Assembly (NCBI GenBank): GCA_965205865.1
Contig: CBDBHR010000023.1
Span: 64,001 to 128,000, forward strand
Direction of reading: 5' to 3'
DNA length: 64,000 nt
DNA from: a bacterium
Lineage (GTDB): Bacteria; SAR324; NAC60-12
In this document: in pieces, positions 9,104-61,223 of the stretch
How the letters are laid out: every line of letters starts with the position of its first letter
Numbering within the stretch: position 1 is the first letter of the stretch
The notes under the pieces: generated by a model
Databases searched by the model: none
Told to the model about the DNA's origin: nothing
The model's input: the letters and a program-made list of their open reading frames with translations, nothing else
Made by a program: the position numbers and the translations under genes

Positions 9104-9191
9104 CTGCTTTCGCAGGAATGACAAGGTTTCTCTAAGATATGAAGATTCCATAACATATTGAATTTATTAAATTCTTATCACGAACTCAGGT
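9104..9191. mobile_element. Right half of the ACCTGAGT-type MITE with a partial REP
   Basis: Near-identical to 2590-2675 (..GCAGGAATGACAAG..AACATATTGAATTTATTAAA..CGAACTCAGGT). Confidence 0.75.
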
Positions 9192-9398
9192 GAAATTAGC
9201 TTTTCTGACCTCATGGCTGCTATGGGACGAAAAACCTGGGGTTGTAAATATTTCAACTCGCAAAAATCACCCGAACAAAAGTTATTTTCTCAGGACAACA
9301 TAAAATGCTTGATTTATCAGCTACTGGCAGCAGCATAATTCTCAATATATGTCTGAAGTCCGGCATTCAAGGACTATAAAAAAAACATTCCATTCCTT

Positions 9399-20221: not shown

Positions 20222-22020
20222 CGGAGGGTCTCCACCATTTTGATCGGTATTTTGATCGGATGATCGAGCAGCAATTGCGCATATCCTTTTCCTTGCGCAT
20301 CATCCCGAAGACTAGCCACCCCTCCCCCTCCCAATACTTCGTGCAAAAGGAAATTGACGGCATGGGATCCGGGCAGCAGGTAGCGTTCCACGTTCCCTTG
20401 CAGAAAATGAGCAAAGCGCCCCGCTATAACCTTTTCTGTCAAGGAATCCCAAATATAGGGTAGATATTCCGGTAGACGGGCAATGATTCCTACATTAGCT
20501 TTGTTGCCTTTATCTCCGCTGCGTCCCCAGGCAAGCTCAACCAAAGGTACTTCCATCATTGCCGAATCGTTTCCAAAAACTACTGGTGGGACCGGACGTT
20601 GGATGGCCTGCTCATCAAAAATGGCACTTTGTTTGGGAATGAATGCGATCGATTCCCCCTCTAAATCGATTCGGATGGAGATCTCATTTTTTGGAATGAG
20701 GAATGAGAAAAGCCTGACCACCGGCGAGGGTTTTGGGCGACTTCCCGCAAATCCTGCGCCACCTGGTGGTGTGGCCAACCCCAAACCCGACGCTTCTTTC
20801 AATAGAATACGGATGCCTGTCTGATCCGCATGTTTGGCAGCCAGTTTAAGCACCACCTCGCGAGATCCTTCGATGCGTTTTGACGCCCCATATTGACTTT
20901 CCGCCCCCAGCACTTCGACGCTGGTTTCCGTGAAATCGGCTAAATTTGCGTCTCGTAACGCCTGCCGGGCTCTATTGAAGATGGCCCGGGCAAAGCCGAG
21001 AGCTTTTTTGTCGGCATCCATGCCATAAAATGTTCTGTAGTTCCCACCGCGAAACCCGTCGGAGTGGGTGGCAGATACTTTATAGGTATCAGTCGCCGGA
21101 TAGCCGCACGCACCAGCCACTGAAACTCGATCCGGCGCTTCTTGCCTGATTTCAACTTTTGAAAAATCACAGACCACATCCGGTACGATATAGGCTTGCG
21201 GGTCTCCAATCTCGTAAAGCATTTGCTCGGAAACCGTCCCCACATTGACAATTCCTCCCGTTCCTGCGGCCTTCGTCACCAGAAAACTGCCGTCAGAAGA
21301 AATTTCTGCAATGGGATATCCAATCTGGTCGATGCTATTCACCACCTCTTGCCAATCGGTGAAATTCCCCCCGCTGGCTTGTGGACCACATTCCAGGACA
21401 TGTCCGGCCAAGGTTCCGCTGGCGAGGCGATCCCACGCTTCCTCTGCCCAGCCAAATTCATGGATGCAGGCACCCAAGGTAACGGCACTGTCCACCGCGC
21501 GACCGGTGATCACGATATCCGAGCCCTCATCCAAAGCCAAGGCAATGGGAAACGCCCCGAGATAGGCGTTGACGCTCGCCAGCGTTGCGGATTCGGGGAA
21601 GTCCTCATCAGAATACATTTCCTTTACGCCCCGACGGGATAACGCGTCTCCCATCTCGATCAAATCGTCACCCAGGACGATTGCCACTTTCAAATCCAGT
21701 TTTTGATCGGCAATGAGTTTTCGCACGGCCTGGCCACATGCTCTTGGGTTCACGCCACCTGCATTAGTGATTATTTTTACTCCTTGACGAGCAATTCCTT
21801 TGAGATTGTCCTGCATGACAACCGTCACAAAGTCCCGGGCATAGCCGGCATTCGGGTCTTTCGCTAACGCCCGCGCCATGATCGACATCGAGATCTCGGC
21901 AAGATAATCGTATACGATATAGTCCAAACCTCCTGCAGTTAAGAATTGTGGAGTCGCCATGTTTGATTCTCCCCAATAGCCACAGGCTCCTCCGATACGA
22001 ATAATGTCTTTAGATGCCAT
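20218..22020 (-). CDS. atuA: Acyclic terpene utilisation protein AtuA family
   Basis: IRIGGACGYWG, DYLAE, ITGRAVD, RSGDKG and DAQGK. AAGGAGG RBS precedes ATG 22020. Confidence 0.88.
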   Translation of the reverse strand: MASKDIIRIGGACGYWGESNMATPQFLTAGGLDYIVYDYLAEISMSIMARALAKDPNAGYARDFVTVVMQDNLKGIARQGVKIITNAGGVNPRACGQAVRKLIADQKLDLKVAIVLGDDLIEMGDALSRRGVKEMYSDEDFPESATLASVNAYLGAFPIALALDEGSDIVITGRAVDSAVTLGACIHEFGWAEEAWDRLASGTLAGHVLECGPQASGGNFTDWQEVVNSIDQIGYPIAEISSDGSFLVTKAAGTGGIVNVGTVSEQMLYEIGDPQAYIVPDVVCDFSKVEIRQEAPDRVSVAGACGYPATDTYKVSATHSDGFRGGNYRTFYGMDADKKALGFARAIFNRARQALRDANLADFTETSVEVLGAESQYGASKRIEGSREVVLKLAAKHADQTGIRILLKEASGLGLATPPGGAGFAGSRPKPSPVVRLFSFLIPKNEISIRIDLEGESIAFIPKQSAIFDEQAIQRPVPPVVFGNDSAMMEVPLVELAWGRSGDKGNKANVGIIARLPEYLPYIWDSLTEKVIAGRFAHFLQGNVERYLLPGSHAVNFLLHEVLGGGGVASLRDDAQGKGYAQLLLDHPIKIPIKMVETLR

Positions 22021-22449
22021 CGTCCCCTCCTTCTTGCTGTAATCGTTATCGATCTTTACATCACTCCATTCAATAAATTCCCGGCTTTTTTTTATCAGTA
22101 GCGCAGGCGTCTCGCCCACAAGAGAAGGCTGGAGACGGCCCCTCTGCCAAATTCTATGCCGGAGTACTCTTTGGAATGGCGCTTCAAACAATATGAAACT
22201 TTATAAAACACATTTCTTTAGACCGCGTCAAGTTCAAACTTTGAGAAGGAGTAGAATTTGAAGTTGGCGCAATACTTTGCAGTAAGGCTCGTGCCTTCAC
22301 TTTTGATACTTCTGAAAATGTGCTAGCTTTGATTTCAGAGGGAAATTTTAATGTGTTCTTGGCCTGAAGTTGCGGTGTATGGTTCCGCGTTCCGTAATTA
22401 TTCACTGATGTTACGTGCACGGATTTTGCAGTTATGCGTCTCATCGAGT

Positions 22450-22825
22450 TGTCATTCCTGGCGAAGACCAGGAATCCACAGGGCTGGCGATTCAGGTGAC
22501 TAAAACGTTTCATATAAATCTTTCCATTGAGGATTATTTTTCTCAATGAGTTCGATTTTCCAAGCTCGTTTCCATTTCTTGAGTTGTTTTTCTCTCCGGA
22601 GAGCAGCTGTCACCTCTGAAGCGGTCTCATAGTATACCAATTGATGTACTTGGTATTTACTGGTAAATCCTTCTATGAGATTTTTTTTATGTTCATAAAC
22701 TCTTTTAAGAAGATCATTTGTCACTCCAATATATAGAGTGCCATTTCTTTTACTTGCTAAGGTATAAACGTAGTAGGTTTTCATGATGGCGACTCCCGGA
22801 TTCCTGGTCTTCGCCAGGAATGACA
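22450..22825. mobile_element. REP-bracketed GIY-YIG nuclease cassette (putative mobile unit)
   Basis: Perfect 28-bp inverted repeats TGTCATTCCTGGCGAAGACCAGGAATCC (22450-22477 and 22798-22825), each internally palindromic, enclose a single gene. Confidence 0.7.
22500..22784 (-). CDS. Stand-alone GIY-YIG endonuclease (94 aa)
   Basis: YYVYTL...GTLYIGVT..L.KRVYEH...A..REKQLKKWKRAWKIELIE; conserved Tyr, Arg, His and Glu residues are present. Confidence 0.92.
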   Translation of the reverse strand: MKTYYVYTLASKRNGTLYIGVTNDLLKRVYEHKKNLIEGFTSKYQVHQLVYYETASEVTAALRREKQLKKWKRAWKIELIEKNNPQWKDLYETF

Positions 22826-22929
22826 CACTTGTGGGAAGCGTATTCATGGAAACCGCTGAATGCAAAAAATATACACGTAATATGACTTATTCAAAGAGAA
22901 GGCATAACTTTGGACGGTTGAGAGGGATT

Positions 22930-23832
22930 ATGAAACTGAAAAATCTATTTTTTTTACTGATTCTGACAAGCAGCGCCAGCTTACTATGGGGGACAGCACT
23001 TTACGCTGCCGAGCAGGAGGAAATTGAGCGTGGGGAGTATATTTTCAGAGCCACGGGAGGATGTGGTTGTCATACCGATTATGAGAATGACGGAGCGTTC
23101 CTGGCAGGAGGACGGGCGATCAAAACCCCTTTTGGAACCTTCTATGGAACTAACATCACGCCCGACCGGGAAACGGGAATCGGAGAGTGGAATGAAGAGG
23201 ATTTCATTCGGGCAATGACCCGGGGCACAGGTCCCGACGGCACTCACTATGCGCCTGTCTTCCCTTATACTTCTTTTACACGGATGACTCGAGAAGATCT
23301 ACTTTCCTTGAAAGCATATTTATCTGCCGTCCCTGCGATTCGCCAGGAAAACAAAACCCATGACTTGTTCATCCCTTTTGGGGAACGGCTGGGTTTTTTC
23401 TTGTGGAAAAAAATGTTTTTTCAAGAAAGCTCGTTCCAACCTCAAGCGGACAAATCCCCCCAATGGAATCGTGGAGCTTATTTGGCAGGTGTGTTGGCTC
23501 ATTGTGAAGAATGCCACACTCCCCGGAATATACAGGGTGTTTTGAAAAAAGATATGCGTTATGCAGGCTCGAGAGATGGGCCGGAAGGGGAACTCGCCCC
23601 CAATATCACGCCTGATGATGAGACTGGTATTGGCGAGTGGGTGGTAATCGATATCGTTGATTTTCTACAAAATGGGATCAAACCGGATGGCGATGACACG
23701 CAAGGCCTGATGAGTCAGGTGATCGAGCATGGCTACGCGTATATGACTACGGAAGATCTGCAAGCTCTGGCCGTCTATCTGAAAGCCCTTCCCCCTATTT
23801 ATAACCCTCTGGAGGAAGGGGACGAAGAATAG
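22930..23832 (+). CDS. Periplasmic di-haem cytochrome c (dehydrogenase cytochrome-subunit-like)
   Basis: Signal peptide, CGCH and CEECH haem motifs, duplicated NITPD.ETGIG.W and FPYTSF. Confidence 0.85.
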   Translation: MKLKNLFFLLILTSSASLLWGTALYAAEQEEIERGEYIFRATGGCGCHTDYENDGAFLAGGRAIKTPFGTFYGTNITPDRETGIGEWNEEDFIRAMTRGTGPDGTHYAPVFPYTSFTRMTREDLLSLKAYLSAVPAIRQENKTHDLFIPFGERLGFFLWKKMFFQESSFQPQADKSPQWNRGAYLAGVLAHCEECHTPRNIQGVLKKDMRYAGSRDGPEGELAPNITPDDETGIGEWVVIDIVDFLQNGIKPDGDDTQGLMSQVIEHGYAYMTTEDLQALAVYLKALPPIYNPLEEGDEE

Positions 23833-25078: not shown

Positions 25079-25130
25079 CCTGAGTTCGACAACATATTGA
25101 ATTTATTAAATTCTTATCTCGAACTCAGGT
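25078..25130. mobile_element. 53-bp minimal derivative of the ACCTGAGT MITE
   Basis: ACCTGAGTTCGA...TCGAACTCAGGT; the interior matches the right end of 2460-2675. It lies between the convergent pgk and cimA genes. Confidence 0.7.
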
Positions 25131-25167
25131 TGATTTGAGGAGTTGTGAGGCAATCCCCATTCGGGAC

Positions 25168-29475: not shown

Positions 29476-30285
29476 GAGCTATAATCGAATCTAGTGTTTG
29501 AGGAATTGAACAAAGGCGGCATATCTGGTTGACTAGAATTTTCGAATATCAATCAACCAAATAAAAAGGATATGCCACTATGGGAAAGAACAGCATTTTA
29601 GAGTTCGATAATAAAGAGAGTGTTTCAGATGTTCTGAACGAGTTGTTACGAGACGGGGCACAGCAATTAATACGTCAGGCAGTAGAAACAGAATTGAGCG
29701 AGTATTTGTCTCAGCATCAACGCATAGCCGATGATGGAAGGCTTGCGTTGGTACGCAACGGCTACCTGCCAAAACGAGAAATCCTGACAGGTATAGGCCC
29801 AGTCAGTGTCCGCATCCCCAAGGTACGTTCAAAAGATGGGAAGGCACTGACTTTCCGTTCTGCCTTGGTTCCGCCCTATGTCAGAAAAACCAGATCCCTG
29901 GAAGCAGCATTACCATGGCTGTACCTGAAAGGTGTTTCTACCGGAGAGATGGAGGAAGCATTAAAAGTCCTGGTCGGTCATGATGCACTGGGCCTCTCAG
30001 CCAGCACTGTCTCACGCCTCAAGAGTGAATGGGCAAATGAATATCATCATTGGCGGGAGGCACCACTGGATGAAGACCGCTGGGCCTATGTCTGGGTAGA
30101 TGGCATCTATTCAGGTCTTCGATCCGAGAAAGATAAACTTTGCGCATTGGTTATCATTGGAGTCAACGAAAGAGGTCAGAAACGTTTTTTAGCCATCGAA
30201 GATGGTGTACGAGAGTCCACTCAGAGTTGGAGAGAAGTTCTGCTGAAACTCAAAAGCCGTGGCATGAATGTTCCTCAGTTAGCTA
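29476..30285 (+). mobile_element. IS256-family element, left part (transposase from 29580), truncated by a second IS
   Basis: Left IR GAGCTATAATCGAATCTAGTGTTTGAG and RNGY motif. Matches window bases 1-429 until it is interrupted at 30285. Confidence 0.9.
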
Positions 30286-32118
30286 GACCCTAGCCGAAAA
30301 GGGTTTCGAAAATAGTAAATGTAACCAATTTGATTCTATTTGATTCTCTATTTGATTCAATATGACGAGAAAACGATTTTTTTGTTTTTTATTCGCCCAC
30401 AGCACAGTTTTTATAGGGAAAAAATCTTTTTTGGACATACTTTCCTCGCCCCTGCTCATATTTCACACTCCCCCATTGAATATTCAGGCCGCTTGTTTGA
30501 GTTGTCTTTTTTTCAACTCAATCATTTTGCAAAAATTATAGGTTAATGCTTTTTCCAGCAACTCTGCCCGAACGTTTTCAATCCCTCTGCGCATAACTTG
30601 TCCGAAATGGAAACGATGCTTAAGATGAAACATCAACGACTCTGCAGCAGATCTTCCATTTCGTGATTCCAAATAGATTTCACTTTCCCATTCTTCAATC
30701 GGGGTCATCTTTTTTCCCTTTGCCCCACTAATACTAAAAACCTTAACGCCTTTGCCCATCCACTTTTCTCTGATCGCCTGATTGGCATATCCATCATCAA
30801 GGCTCACTTCAGAGGGAATGGTGATGGTGCATCGCAAATGTTCAACAAGGGCAGGGTCGAGTTGCCCTGAATCAGCAGCATTGCCCTCCGGAGTAATTAA
30901 CACGGAAATAAAACCATTTCCGCTCCTTCCTAATTGAGGCTTATATCCGATAAGCGCTTCTCGATCTCCCTTTTGAATATAAGCCGAGCTCTGATCGGAA
31001 AGACTCAATACTTTCTCAGTAGAAGGAACCTTCTTTTCTTCAAAAACTCTTTGATGACAGTAGATGATTACCCGTTGCAAATTAGAAATATCTTCATTCA
31101 TCATTTCAATGAGGCGAATCAAACGCGTTTTCCGAGAAGGGGGGAGAAGAGCTTTTTGGGCACGGATATCCACCTTTGCCATTTCTTTTAAAAATTTCCC
31201 ATGAGCGCTTTGAGCTTTCTTCAATAGGGTTTTGTAATGTTTTTTTCGCTTCGTTTTACTGTCCTTTTTACCTGTCTCAAAAGCCATCATCTTAGAGAGC
31301 TTATTCATCTCCTTGATGAGGAAATCAAAATTTCTTTCACTGATCTCAGCGATTCCAAATGTATCAAGGGAACGCCCTCGATGGTAGCTTCGCTCCACGA
31401 GACGAGTCAATATCGACGAATCAGTAGGCCAAGCTGTATTTCCTTTTACAGAGGTGCTATCCAGTTTTAAAATATCAAAATCGTCCAACTCTTCATCGAG
31501 AACCATTCGAATTTGAGCATCGAAAATAAACTGTCTGCTCTCGTTGCTGACAGCATTGACATTATCAAGGATTGTACTCGCTCCCGGCATTTTCAATCCA
31601 CGGTTGAGCAGAAGCAGATGCAGTGTGATTGACTCTGAAAGAAATATTTGGGCCGTTTGGGATTTGATACTTCCTAAATATCCCCGAATCATCATAAAAA
31701 GGTAGACTAAAAAAGCCGACATCCGAGGACACCCTATTTCCAGCCTCAGTTCTTCCGGCTTCAATTCCTCATCTTCTACGGGAAGATGAGGAAGCCATGG
31801 ATTCCGGGCTTCCTGCCATCGTTTATCCTCTAAACGCTCTTTCTTTTTATTTCTTGCGTATTTCTCCAAATCCTGTTCAATTTTGTCCAATATCTCCGGC
31901 TCTCGCTCAGACAATTGATCAAGTTCTGATAAGAAATTTTCAAATTCTGTATCAGGAGCGCTTAAAATAAGATGTTTTTCTGCTCGAATGAATGGTTTCA
32001 TTTTGGGTGCCATAATTCTTAATATTGAAGTTATTCACAGTTATTTCAATGAATTATGGCACTTTTTAACCTCAAGTTTAAAGATATAATTCTAAAAAAT
32101 ACCTTTTCGGCTAGGATC
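30286..32118 (-). mobile_element. ISNCY/IS5-like insertion sequence
   Basis: Terminal IRs GACCCTAGCCGAAAAGG and CCTTTTCGGCTAGGATC; flanks are TAGCTA and AAGCTA. Confidence 0.85.
30484..32013 (-). CDS. DDE transposase (ISNCY/IS5-like), 509 aa
   Basis: LDSTSV..N..WPTDS, LDDGY and RSAAES..HLK motifs. Confidence 0.85.
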   Translation of the reverse strand: MAPKMKPFIRAEKHLILSAPDTEFENFLSELDQLSEREPEILDKIEQDLEKYARNKKKERLEDKRWQEARNPWLPHLPVEDEELKPEELRLEIGCPRMSAFLVYLFMMIRGYLGSIKSQTAQIFLSESITLHLLLLNRGLKMPGASTILDNVNAVSNESRQFIFDAQIRMVLDEELDDFDILKLDSTSVKGNTAWPTDSSILTRLVERSYHRGRSLDTFGIAEISERNFDFLIKEMNKLSKMMAFETGKKDSKTKRKKHYKTLLKKAQSAHGKFLKEMAKVDIRAQKALLPPSRKTRLIRLIEMMNEDISNLQRVIIYCHQRVFEEKKVPSTEKVLSLSDQSSAYIQKGDREALIGYKPQLGRSGNGFISVLITPEGNAADSGQLDPALVEHLRCTITIPSEVSLDDGYANQAIREKWMGKGVKVFSISGAKGKKMTPIEEWESEIYLESRNGRSAAESLMFHLKHRFHFGQVMRRGIENVRAELLEKALTYNFCKMIELKKRQLKQAA

Positions 32119-51748: not shown

Positions 51749-52023
51749 CAATGGTTCTGACTTTTTTTTTAATTCTTAATAAATTGAAAATAAATCATTT
51801 CAAATACTTAGAAAAAGTATCTGAATTATTTACAACTCCGAGTCAGTTTCTCAGTTTGAAATAATTCAAGCAATTCCGAAGACTGTGTCATTCCTGGCTT
51901 GCCCAGGAATCCAGAATATTTACTGATGAACTTCTGGATTCCTGGGCAAGCCAGGAATGACATTGATTCTGTGTACAGAACAAAGAATACTTCATAGGTA
52001 TTTCAAAACTGTTAGAAGTATTG
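51749..52023. mobile_element. 275-bp MITE with CAAT ends (IS4-like) and a 7-bp target duplication
   Basis: Ends CAATGGTTCTGAC and GTTAGAAGTATTG, with CTAACCA on both sides. The empty site is visible at about 62674-62680. Confidence 0.85.
51886..51962. repeat. TGTCA-tagged REP doublet
   Basis: TGTCATTCCTGGCTTGCCCAGGAATCCAGAA and its exact reverse complement, separated by a 15-bp spacer. Confidence 0.9.
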
Positions 52024-56711: not shown

Positions 56712-56787
56712 TGTCATCCCGGACTTGATCCGGGATCTGGGGAAAGTCGGTAAGCCCCCTGGATTCCTGGGCAAGCCAGGAATGACA
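56712..56787. repeat. TGTCA-tagged REP doublet (empty intron site)
   Basis: TGTCATCCCGGACTTGATCCGGGATC ... GGATTCCTGGGCAAGCCAGGAATGACA. Confidence 0.9.
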
Positions 56788-56928
56788 ATATTTATGCCTA
56801 TTTGGACCCGAGGGTGAGGTATGTGTGAAGGGGTTAGGCTGAAGGGGGAAGGCTGTTAGGGCATCAGTCTAAACTTCAGTCCTCATTCTAGTAGTACAGG
56901 TGTTACGGAGTAATTAACCCTTTCTGTG

Positions 56929-57742
56929 ATAGGGGTCAGGAAGGCATTTGCCTCCCTGCCGTCCGAACCGTGCGTGCGGTTCTCCCGCACACGGCTCTCC
57001 AGTCGTTGGTTTCCTCATCGGGATTGGCTCGCTACCCATCGGGCTTCTTTCATGCTGAAAAGTCCGAGTTGCGCGAAGAACACCTTGACTCCGTTACCCA
57101 GAGCCGCCAACATACGTTTGATCCATATCGTTGTTTCCACCCAACTCCAATGAGGAGAGGCTTCTGTTTCCAGGTTAGTCATCTCCGACACTTTGGAAAC
57201 TCTTTTTTCTTGAGGATCAACTTGATGAACTGCTCGTATCCAACTTCCTACCCCGCTTCCCTCTTCGGGATTTTGCTTCTCCCGCCTTTCATGAAGCCTG
57301 CCTGTCAATTCAGGTTCGTGTTTGTTTTCCCTGTTGGCCATCTGCTTTCCCGATGGTGTCACAATATCCTCACCTTGTTGACAGACACAACTCCATTACG
57401 GTACTATCAGGGTTCTGACTCCTCTACCTCTCACCAAAGGCAGAGGTCTCCCTGCTTCTCTCGCTTAACCTTCCTGATGTTCCGTCCCCAACCACGTTAT
57501 GCGCCTGACCCTCGTTTTATCCACCACCACAACGGGATCAGTGAGTTTCAGACTTCGCCACGAATGAGCAAGCTCGTCGCAAACATGCCGCCGAATCGGG
57601 TTCGTTCTCCTACGGACCACCATTTCGCCTCCGGTTGCTCCCCACCCCGCCTCATGGCGACGCAGTTACCTTCGACTACATGGCTGTGGTTTACCATGAC
57701 ACGGACTTTCACCGTGCTGATTAAGCGCCTTCCCAGGCGCAC
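56929..57742 (-). mobile_element. 814-nt group II intron (IIC-like) with the RT ORF almost wholly deleted
   Basis: 5' end GTGCGCCTGGGAAGGCGC, domain V GAGCCGTGTGCGGGAGAACCGCACGCACGGTTC and 3' end CCCCTAT. The residual ORF joins WSWVE..RMLAALGNGVK to FFAQLGLFSM. Confidence 0.9.
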
Positions 57743-57924
57743 TCATCCCGGACTTGATCCGGGATCTGGGGAAAGTCTGTAAGCCCCCTGGATTCCTGGG
57801 CAAGCCAGGAATGACAATAACGGGAATTGAGTTCTGAATTTAAGAGAATAGTGTGAGATTTGTCGGTCAACCAGCCTAAATACCTAATCTTCGGTCTTCA
57901 GCCTTCAGCCTAAATACCTAAACT

Positions 57925-59527: not shown

Positions 59528-61223
59528 CCTAAATCCTGCAATTAGATGACAATCAAACATGGAAATGGTAATATACTCAAATAGTTAACACCAGAATCAA
59601 CATTTTAAGAGATCACCATTTCCATGAAAAACAAACGTAGCGCAAGATCGGCAAGAACGACAGCAAAAAACATCCATATCAGCCAGGGAGGCAGAGACCT
59701 GACCGCGCAAGCAGGCTTGATTCCGGTTGTCAAATTTTTTCACAAAGAAGGGATTGTTTCAAAGACAGAGCAGACCGTAGATCATCGGCGTGGCGCCACG
59801 GGTCTTTATGACGCAGTGGACATGGTCATTTTGTCGGTGGTCGGCATTGTTGGCGGCGCCCGTTCGATTCGTTCGATTGTGACAGTTTGGAACGACCGTG
59901 TTTTGAGTCGTGTGGCCGGTTGGCTGAGGATTCCGGATGAAACCACATTCGGCCGGATACTGCGTACTTTCACACAGAAAAACATCAATGAGATGGAGAG
60001 CTTGAACCATCGGATTCGAGCCGGTATCTGGCGTAAGGTGCTTCGAAGTGGGACAAGCATCGTTGGGGTGTTACACTGTCTTGTGATTGACGTGGACTCC
60101 ACTGTGAAAACGGCCTACGGCAAGCAGCAAGGAGTGTCTGTCGGATATAATCCACACAAACGCGGTGCAGCTTCGTATCATCCTCTGCTGGCATTTTGCG
60201 CAGAGACAAAGGAGATTCTTCAGGGTTGGCTTCGTGATGGGAGTGCCTATACCAGCAATGGAGTCGTTGAATTCATGCGGCAACTTCTTGCTCACCTTCC
60301 AAATCGGACTCGCATTCTGTTTCGTGGAGACAGTGGTTTTTTTGTGGGGGATTTGCTGGATTTCCTCGAAGAACGAGGCCATGGCTATCTGATCAAGGTC
60401 AAACTCAAGGGGCTTGTCTCGTTGTTGGAAACCCAAAAATGGCAAAAAGTGAAGGGGCAGCCCGCTTGGGAAGGGTGTGAGTTTTCCCACCAATGTAAAA
60501 CTTGGAGGAGGTCAAGAAAATTCATGGCCGTACGCAGGGAGAAAGAGGAGGAACTCAAAGGGATGGCCACCCTCTTTGAGATGAAGGAGTACGATTATTT
60601 TTGTTATGTTCTCACCGATGCGCTCACTCCCTGGCAGGCTCACAAAGAGTATGGCCAGAGGGCGGTCGCTGAGACATGGATTGAGGAAGCAAAAAATCAA
60701 ACTGCGCTGGCTCAGATTAAAACCGACGATTTTTGGGCCAACAGTGCCTTGTTCCAATGCGCGATACTCGCTTACAACACGCTGCGCTGGATGGCCCTTT
60801 GTAGTGGTAACGCAATACTGCGCCGTTGGGAACCGGCCACCATGCGCACCTATCTTGTCCGAATGGCAGGAAAATGGACGAGTGGCGCTCGTCAACAAAA
60901 ACTGAGAGTTCCGGAAAGAACACTTTACAATGCTCAATGGGATGCATGGGTCGCTGTTGGAGAGACCTAGATCCTTTGTTTCACTCCAGTGGAAACGTTT
61001 TGCTGAGATGTCGATCTCCAAATCGAGGGAGAAGTACGTCTTGAATCTTGTGCCCGCGAAAGCGGGTATCAGATCATCACAAAATATGACGATCAAATGG
61101 AGGGCGGAAAAACCTTTATGAGCAAGGACTGATGGAAATTCAACTCTCAAATCCTTTTTTTTAAAAAAACCTCTCAAAGAGTGAGGGGAAACTCAATCAA
61201 AATATTCAATTGCAGGATTTAGG
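59528..61223 (+). mobile_element. IS1380-family insertion sequence, complete
   Basis: Perfect 16-bp IRs CCTAAATCCTGCAATT and a 5-bp target duplication TGTCA. An empty paralogous site lies at about 46742-46746. Confidence 0.93.
59624..60970 (+). CDS. IS1380-family transposase
   Basis: LTAQAGL, IDVDSTV..YGKQQG, YHPL, LRDGSA, RGDSGF and Y.QR..AE..IEE.K. Confidence 0.93.
   Translation: MKNKRSARSARTTAKNIHISQGGRDLTAQAGLIPVVKFFHKEGIVSKTEQTVDHRRGATGLYDAVDMVILSVVGIVGGARSIRSIVTVWNDRVLSRVAGWLRIPDETTFGRILRTFTQKNINEMESLNHRIRAGIWRKVLRSGTSIVGVLHCLVIDVDSTVKTAYGKQQGVSVGYNPHKRGAASYHPLLAFCAETKEILQGWLRDGSAYTSNGVVEFMRQLLAHLPNRTRILFRGDSGFFVGDLLDFLEERGHGYLIKVKLKGLVSLLETQKWQKVKGQPAWEGCEFSHQCKTWRRSRKFMAVRREKEEELKGMATLFEMKEYDYFCYVLTDALTPWQAHKEYGQRAVAETWIEEAKNQTALAQIKTDDFWANSALFQCAILAYNTLRWMALCSGNAILRRWEPATMRTYLVRMAGKWTSGARQQKLRVPERTLYNAQWDAWVAVGET

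Follow-up and report, generated by a model that had tools for sequence, protein, structure and literature searches.

Ssn nucleases are GIY-YIG proteins of about 94 aa, which bind a CGTC-tagged hairpin (NTS or SRM) in single-stranded DNA, where they cleave a few nucleotides upstream of the hairpin (Chenal et al., 2025, PMC11893778). For SsnA of Neisseria meningitidis (cd10448) the cut site was placed about 3 nt upstream of the motif, double-stranded DNA was not cut by this enzyme, and cleavage of ssDNA upstream of the own motif was demonstrated for four Ssn homologues (PMC11893778). SRMs occur on both sides in 42% of the homologues, and the IS-like layout, together with the analogy to IS200/REP (IS/RAYT) systems, was already raised in the Discussion of the same paper; the homologues collected there were limited to one per genome, and neither mobility nor a target duplication, an empty site or an expansion to many copies is shown in the accessible portions (PMC11893778). 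REPs with the CGTC/TGTC tag possess an 8-9-bp stem and a short tail and are mostly arranged in doublets, and the accessible portions of the study which described them report that no dedicated transposase was found (Di Nocera et al., 2013, PMC3733652). MITEs and mobile insertion cassettes (MICs), in turn, are moved in trans by the transposase of a cognate IS, the pair IS231-MIC231 being cited as an example (PMC3129680).

The window, i.e., the whole stretch of 64,000 nucleotides analyzed here, belongs to a SAR324 genome (GenBank assembly GCA_965205865.1, contig CBDBHR010000023.1; hereafter the source genome) and contains a GIY-YIG gene between two TGTC-tagged hairpins. Like the RAYT/REPIN systems, the locus has a nuclease gene flanked by its own hairpins, but it differs from them in the GIY-YIG (not HUH/Y1) type of the nuclease, in the TGTC tags instead of GTAG ones, and in the position of the element ends, which do not lie at the REPs. 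Our analysis points, with good probability, to the capture of an SRM-ssn-SRM cassette by a MITE and to the later spread of the composite 482-bp element in trans by a transposase, presumably of the DDE type. The features of the locus, in window coordinates, are as follows.

22398-22404, no strand: first copy of the 7-bp target-site duplication, TTATTCA on the plus strand; the empty-site joint of run X6 keeps one copy
22405-22886, minus strand: 482-bp TIR element (MITE/mobile insertion cassette), non-autonomous, with SRM-ssn-SRM inside; the true mobile unit
22405-22430, plus strand: terminal inverted repeat downstream of ssn, begins CTGATGTTACG; loose ends of other insertions abut it in three of the four sequencing runs
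22450-22477, plus strand: SRM hairpin, a TGTC-tagged REP of the CGTC family, tag directed away from ssn (published degenerate SRM pattern and predicted fold)
22500-22784, minus strand: ssn gene for the 94-aa single-domain GIY-YIG nuclease (ORF, Pfam, homology)
22798-22825, minus strand: SRM hairpin upstream of ssn, tag outward (inverted repeat, pattern, predicted fold)
22861-22886, minus strand: terminal inverted repeat upstream of ssn, begins GTCATATTACG; identical to the other end at 18 of 26 positions
22887-22893, no strand: second copy of the 7-bp target-site duplication, TTATTCA on the plus strand

Identity of the nuclease and its hairpins

The protein encoded by the minus-strand ORF 22500-22784 contains the Pfam GIY-YIG domain (PF01541) over residues 4-77 (E 1.1e-15). 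Its comparison with the NTS-flanked homologue from N. gonorrhoeae, which served as a proxy for N. meningitidis SsnA in both the homology and the residue comparisons, gave 61.6% identity over 91% of the length (E 3e-30), i.e., values inside the limits of the strict rule for Ssn homologues (E<1e-10 and at least 60% identity over 75% of the length; PMC11893778). Through the same proxy, the catalytic residues Y7, Y18 and E65, all of them intact, align to Y6, Y17 and E64. Matches to NCBIfam profiles were all below the cut-offs, and a PDB sequence search with the protein returned only 1zg2 (E 0.08). The two SRM arms form a perfect 28-bp inverted repeat; both fit the published degenerate pattern without mismatch, and each is predicted to fold with an 8-bp stem and a 6-nt loop (z -2.1 and -1.8, which is modest). 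The cassette is located between divergent atuA and cytochrome c genes. A GGAG motif resembling a ribosome-binding site lies just upstream of ssn, within the SRM tail, and a promoter scan of the locus did not exceed the chance level. Only 0.05-0.09 of the words were recovered from three RNA runs. In all these respects, namely the 94-aa GIY-YIG gene, the paired hairpins with outward tags and the divergent neighbors, the original prediction described the locus accurately.

Homology identifies the 94-aa protein as an Ssn nuclease and its hairpins as the SRMs of an Ssn system: the single-domain GIY-YIG protein of the same length, the Y/Y/E positions, the SRM-gene-SRM layout and the SRM-pattern hairpins are all shared with it (PMC11893778), and the hairpins are likewise CGTC/TGTC-tagged REPs of the kind described by Di Nocera et al. 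(2013, PMC3733652). In contrast to the described system, the window cassette has 12 full-length copies and is surrounded by an outer TIR element. By analogy with the four assayed homologues, the window Ssn probably cuts single-stranded DNA beside the TGTC tag (PMC11893778), and the nicking or ssDNA-cutting activity that had been supposed to act at the tag is probably right. The association of the nuclease with the C/TGTC-tagged hairpins was also rightly proposed but is not new, because the Ssn/SRM system, two-sided SRMs included, has been published (PMC11893778). This was the only paper linking GIY-YIG with REP or dRS3 as a topic in our literature search, whose field was open-access main texts. 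The setting, a multicopy ssn cassette within a TIR element, is one for which we found no description there, the Ssn/SRM family itself being known.

Boundaries, copies and target duplications of the element

The source genome contains 12 near-full-length copies of ssn, along with fragments, with a median pairwise identity of 95%. The homology among the copies does not stop at the REPs, as it should have if the unit were the predicted 376 bp made of the gene and the REPs only, but continues for another 45 bp on one side and 61 bp on the other, to sharp coverage edges. The outer ends form an imperfect 26-bp terminal inverted repeat (18/26 positions), which is conserved across the copies; 16 left and 20 right ends were counted in the source genome, and 13 loci on six contigs possess both. 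Exact duplications of 7 bp were found at seven of these two-ended loci and one of 8 bp at an eighth, two more loci have 7-bp duplications with one mismatch, and three have none, as compared with an exact duplication in 3 of the 180 crossed pairings of left and right ends that served as a control; the chance of a match among AT-rich 7-mers is 0.0017. The seven exact 7-bp targets are AT-rich and all end in A. In the window itself, where no target duplication had been noticed previously, the direct repeat is situated outside the REPs, at 22398-22404 and 22887-22893. A duplication of 5 bp was considered and dropped, since moving both ends in by one base gave consistent 7-bp duplications; this setting also accounts for the variant terminal base in the C3 copy, and the empty site described below confirms the length of 7 bp.

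The mobile unit is the segment 22405-22886 (482 bp), with its ends outside the REPs and with 7-bp duplications, and the view that the gene sits in mobile DNA is borne out by the 13 two-ended loci, the 7-8-bp duplications and the empty site. The GIY-YIG gene is the only gene inside the element, which carries no transposase. Gene-less derivatives with the wings retained also exist, e.g., a 185-bp copy with an exact duplication of its own. Every end of this TIR family found in the source genome lies in an ssn-element copy or remnant. An exact-string search of the literature on four TIR strings, with the same scope as above (open-access main texts), did not retrieve the family. In its terminal inverted repeats, target duplication, lack of a transposase, passenger gene, many sharp-ended copies and empty site the element resembles MITEs and MICs, and it is unlike them in its passenger, SRM-ssn-SRM, which may be a selfish unit in its own right.

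According to the original prediction, SRM-ssn-SRM would be the autonomous element here, and Ssn would move both the cassette and the gene-less doublets as RAYT does REPINs. The tight coupling of the gene and the hairpins, as well as the cutting by Ssn next to its own motif (PMC11893778), would agree with such a role; nevertheless, it appears improbable. When the REP ends are taken as boundaries, all 12 pairings that could be placed have essentially the same flanks beyond them and no duplication there, and a REP-to-REP unit moved by Ssn is not supported at this locus, where the moved unit ends farther out, at the duplications. It also counts against this role that a 94-aa GIY-YIG domain is not known to perform strand transfer.

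The empty site and the atuA-cytochrome interval

Four sequencing runs from four studies were compared with the window positions 21700-23600 at a likeness threshold of 88%. In run X6, one contig joins 22397 to 22887, so that 489 bp are skipped and 7 letters fit either side; the skipped length equals the 482-bp element plus one 7-bp target copy. The empty site was seen in this one run of the four, on a single contig of depth 16.6, whose shorter side measures 47 letters and whose letters between the sides are not known. Contigs of runs X1 (which may represent the source sample), X2 and X3 enter the element from both flanks, and 6, 4 and 4 records, respectively, have loose ends just before 22404, which represent other insertion sites. 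The site opens at the outer TIRs, and, if it holds, autonomous movement of the SRM-ssn-SRM cassette is refuted for the window insertion. The search for an empty atuA-cytochrome site, suggested earlier as a check, had a further outcome in the same-genus sister genome G001: its atuA and cytochrome genes are adjacent, with two SRMs and neither ssn nor TIR between them, the interval being too diverged for a base-level alignment with the window.

Termini without ssn in related genomes

Exact TIR pattern ends numbered 33 in genome G016, five in G008, two in G010 and two in G001. At least one match to the pattern was present in 9 of the 88 genomes of the phylum, some of these being chance matches inside genes, and it also occurs in named records whose titles give SAR324 cluster and Deltaproteobacteria. 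G008 and G016 together contain 12 paired TIR-bounded elements of 108-331 bp with varied interiors, four of them with exact 7- or 8-bp duplications, three with one mismatch and five with none. The MITE loci are given below.

L062, L068, L072, L073, L075, L077, L128, L129, L131, L134: MITEs with the same TIRs in G016 and G008

No match to ssn was obtained in G016, G008 and G010 (88%, 100% and 95% complete, respectively), where the only GIY-YIG matches fall within frames of 634-658 aa, and no SRM was detected within 600 bp inside any TIR end among the 30 loci screened in the relatives. The outer ends do not need Ssn, because the same TIRs and duplications are borne by MITEs without hairpins in genomes that yielded no ssn.

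These data bear on another mechanism, in which Ssn would mobilize the whole 482-bp element: its nicks at the SRMs would initiate the reaction, and the ends would be set by the outer TIRs. The confinement of the source-genome TIR ends to ssn-element copies and remnants and the failure to find a cognate transposase (see below) would both be expected from it. However, the same ends with 7-8-bp duplications are found in G008 and G016, from which ssn was not recovered at the completeness given above, the predicted Ssn cuts would fall within the wings, about 42 and 58 bp away from the true element ends, and SsnA does not cut double-stranded DNA (PMC11893778), all of which makes this mechanism very improbable.

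The wings of the 482-bp element total 106 bp, which is similar to the smallest MITEs of G008 and G016 and suggests that the cassette was captured by a MITE; as no empty MITE with exactly the same wings was found in the source genome, we infer the capture step from this likeness. If the cassette was captured by a MITE and then moved in trans, as we prefer, the inner layer would be the Ssn gene between its two SRM hairpins (376 bp), where Ssn, to judge from SsnA, would bind the hairpin on ssDNA and cut about 3 nt 5' of the TGTC tag. This cassette would have come to lie inside a MITE of about 106 bp, a member of a TIR family existing also without the cassette, and a trans-acting transposase would then have inserted copies of the 482-bp composite at no fewer than 13 sites. 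A related ssn cassette in G001 (85%) matches the window element only over query positions 71-446, i.e., from REP to REP, and lies at another place, hence the cassette changed place at least once; this would also suit autonomous movement by Ssn.

Since the cassette travels as cargo of a 482-bp mini-transposon, the locus does not show the nuclease moving itself. Such hitch-hiking can mimic self-mobility, and termini farther out should be looked for around multicopy ssn genes before mobilization is ascribed to Ssn. The locus provides a base-pair-level case of a mobile ssn, with many copies, target duplications and an empty allele, which goes beyond the accessible content of the founding paper on Ssn (PMC11893778), and the 482-bp element with its defined ends and the same-ended MITEs in which no ssn was detected make a natural test pair.

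Six of the 12 full-length ssn copies are broken. Among 11 copies, 28 nonsynonymous and nine synonymous mutations gave a pN/pS of 0.77 (p 0.53 against neutrality), as calculated without one rearranged copy and one garbled 3' end, and 0.88 was obtained with all 12 copies. The comparison of the window ssn with that of G001 gave a ratio of 17:17 (0.25), differing from the among-copy ratio with p 0.03. The checked catalytic-core codons are unchanged, five of five in the 11 copies covering them and four of four in the twelfth, for which the probability by chance is about 13%. The mutation ratios, with selection not detectable among the copies, are weak evidence that ssn behaves as a passenger in this expansion, because pN/pS of young copies tends towards 1 anyway and because the core codons are unchanged.

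Search for the mobilizing enzyme

An autonomous element with these termini was found neither in the source genome (92% complete) nor in its relatives, nor in the genome, metagenome, viral and plasmid scans. The source genome is IS-rich (97 PF01609 matches). Its DDE families, repeat families and ORFs bounded by inverted repeats and target duplications were tried as parents and rejected, their ends being unlike the TIR; the elements recovered with 8-bp duplications also have other ends than the 482-bp element, and a search of this genome for transposase-like elements combining a 7-bp duplication with perfect 9-bp ends gave none. An IS3-like element, upstream of which a TIR occurs at locus L039, was rejected as well, as it has its own ends and no relative in the source genome. 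Plasmid matches to the wings were at the chance level (E of 0.6 or more); only one of them overlapped a transposase, and it lay within the coding sequence. On the viral contigs, a single TIR match, located within a gene, and three protein matches, all weak and 20 residues long, were obtained. The window itself carries transposase genes of the IS256, DDE_Tnp_1 and IS1380 types at 9-968, 29580-30293, 30484-32013 and 59624-60970.

Staggered duplications of 7-8 bp are typical of DDE enzymes, not of HUH or IS110 enzymes. The evidence points to a transposase with a 7-bp AT-rich target; such an enzyme would make staggered cuts of 7 bp (sometimes 8 bp), would presumably be of the DDE type, and would be most like the ISPepr1 subgroup of IS4. 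This subgroup, defined by YT-AA-YTT ends and a DDE transposase with the YREK motif, has in common with the element the 7-8-bp duplications, the AT-rich targets and the 5'-CT on one end, whereas its end consensus is only partly matched and the other end of our element begins with G (De Palmenaer et al., 2008, PMC2266710).

The 15 Y1_Tnp matches in the source genome, and the presence of an IS110 element and its 88-92-bp derivative within the element termini in many copies, might suggest an HUH Y1 (TIRYT-type) transposase, or else the IS110 recombinase resident in this genome, as the mobilizing enzyme. We regard this as quite improbable: none of the 30 Y1 loci inspected (54 matches, five genomes) is enclosed by the TIRs, and the element is thereby unlike a TIRtron (TIRYT), having no Y1 transposase gene between its TIRs, while the IS110 pieces are inserted at a GTTAC core, and the copies without them have the same duplications.

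The IS110-family element itself, 1.6 kb in length with a 419-aa frame (PF01548/PF02371), occupies C23:185650-187268 and C28:49466-51076 (L180) in the source genome. Together with its short derivative, which occurs in many element copies, it is inserted within the TIR at either end, sometimes in tandem, and is a target-specific IS110 living on the termini of another element.

SRM doublets, subtypes and arrays

The source genome contains 126 SRM-like hairpins, as compared with 29 in a reversed-sequence control. The doublets in the window other than that of the ssn cassette are listed below.

2508-2607, no strand: composite SRM doublet nested in an unrelated inverted-repeat element (2453-2682)
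51886-51962, no strand: gene-less SRM doublet of another subtype with perfect 31-bp arms, without TIR wings or duplication; not derived from the 482-bp element
56712-56787, no strand: gene-less SRM heterodimer of another subtype, without duplication
56924-57816, no strand: SRM heterodimer split at the tag by a group II intron-like remnant of about 815 bp (about 56928-57742, minus strand)

All these doublets, the intron-split one included, and a half copy near 9104-9123 had been noted before as the same architecture without the gene. Their presence was confirmed, but they belong to other SRM subtypes and have no TIR wings. Neither does their proposed role as non-autonomous partners of the gene-bearing unit fit the data, as they lack TIR ends, belong to subtypes other than the gene-flanking one, and not one of 20 outward-tag doublets has a duplication, which also argues against autonomous movement by Ssn. 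The gene-flanking subtype was found in or beside element copies or remnants in 45 of 45 cases, as against 69 hairpins of other subtypes elsewhere, a split that is partly by construction, the anchor regions having been taken from earlier matches. Covariation of REP copy number with the nuclease, which the original prediction had offered as a check, was not observed: the common subtype counts 59 in the source genome, 176 in G001 and 32 in G016, and does not follow the ssn dose (one broken and one divergent ssn in G001; none found in G016, which is 88% complete), again contrary to what autonomous Ssn would predict.

A second SRM-flanked ssn, whose product is 57% identical to the window protein, is present in the source genome (L114, C30:870856-871131) and in G001 (L104, C1:3293836-3294111), the two cassettes being closely alike. 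It sits between genes for an ABC binding protein and a permease (dppA-dppB-like), in different paralogous operons in the two genomes, and the best-matching source-genome site (C29:476203-476527) has SRMs and no gene. These positions would favor autonomous movement of the cassette by Ssn; against this, the orthology of the dpp-like operons between the source genome and G001 is ambiguous, the binding-protein gene at L104 having dozens of paralogues. The window itself harbors, at 37711-62700, several partly decayed paralogous operons resembling those of ABC peptide transporters.

Tandem SRM arrays occur at some element copies, their junctions lying often 3-17 nt outside the tag and near the position of the SsnA cut (about 3 nt upstream). 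The units are short, so that both junction ends are bound to fall close to the hairpin; moreover, the arrays have a common ancestry, and slippage induced by the hairpins would look alike. BIME-like arrays made of ssn-element pieces, with units of about 16-74 bp, were recorded at C28:58338-58751, C30:58180-59860 and C30:64120-65000 in the source genome. The growth of the arrays would be in line with autonomous movement; it would also be in line with a different role, in which Ssn drives the multiplication of the CGTC/TGTC REPs by nick-and-repair homing, not as a transposase, within a two-tier element nested in a DDE-moved MITE. In that case, Ssn would nick ssDNA within a few bases on the 5' side of the tag, the SRM arrays would arise as the flap with the hairpin is displaced by DNA synthesis and joined again, and repair on SRM-flanked templates would copy SRM-ssn-SRM into new hairpin sites in a homing-like manner; the cassette might have entered the MITE in this way, the MITE then giving the long-range spread. 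The junctions 3-17 nt outside the tag, the REP-to-REP match in G001 and the different position of the second cassette in the two sister genomes, at an SRM-containing site, hint at this, but all three fit Ssn-independent slippage or gene conversion as well, and we consider such a role of Ssn possible, if rather unlikely. If true, it would answer the question posed in 2013 of how CGTC REPs multiply (PMC3733652). A dedicated transposase for these REPs is not supplied by the window locus.

The SRM hairpins also serve as sites for other elements. The element at 56928-57742, which by its end motifs resembles a group II intron, occupies the same SRM-tag position in all five copies (the window and four other source-genome sites), directly after the hairpin on the intron's strand. 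Class C introns insert directly after hairpins. A 1.74-kb IS with a 530-aa DDE frame (PF13751, PF05598), presumably IS1182-like, is present at C28:594299-596035 (L181) and in seven more copies in the source genome; most of its 16 ends fall in SRM-like hairpins, either in the loop or in the stem. The window also contains a further family resembling MITEs, with AACCTGAG-type ends, at 2453-2682, 9109-9198 and 25079-25137; one copy encloses the doublet 2508-2607, and a piece of this family interrupts the ssn copy at C30:970706.
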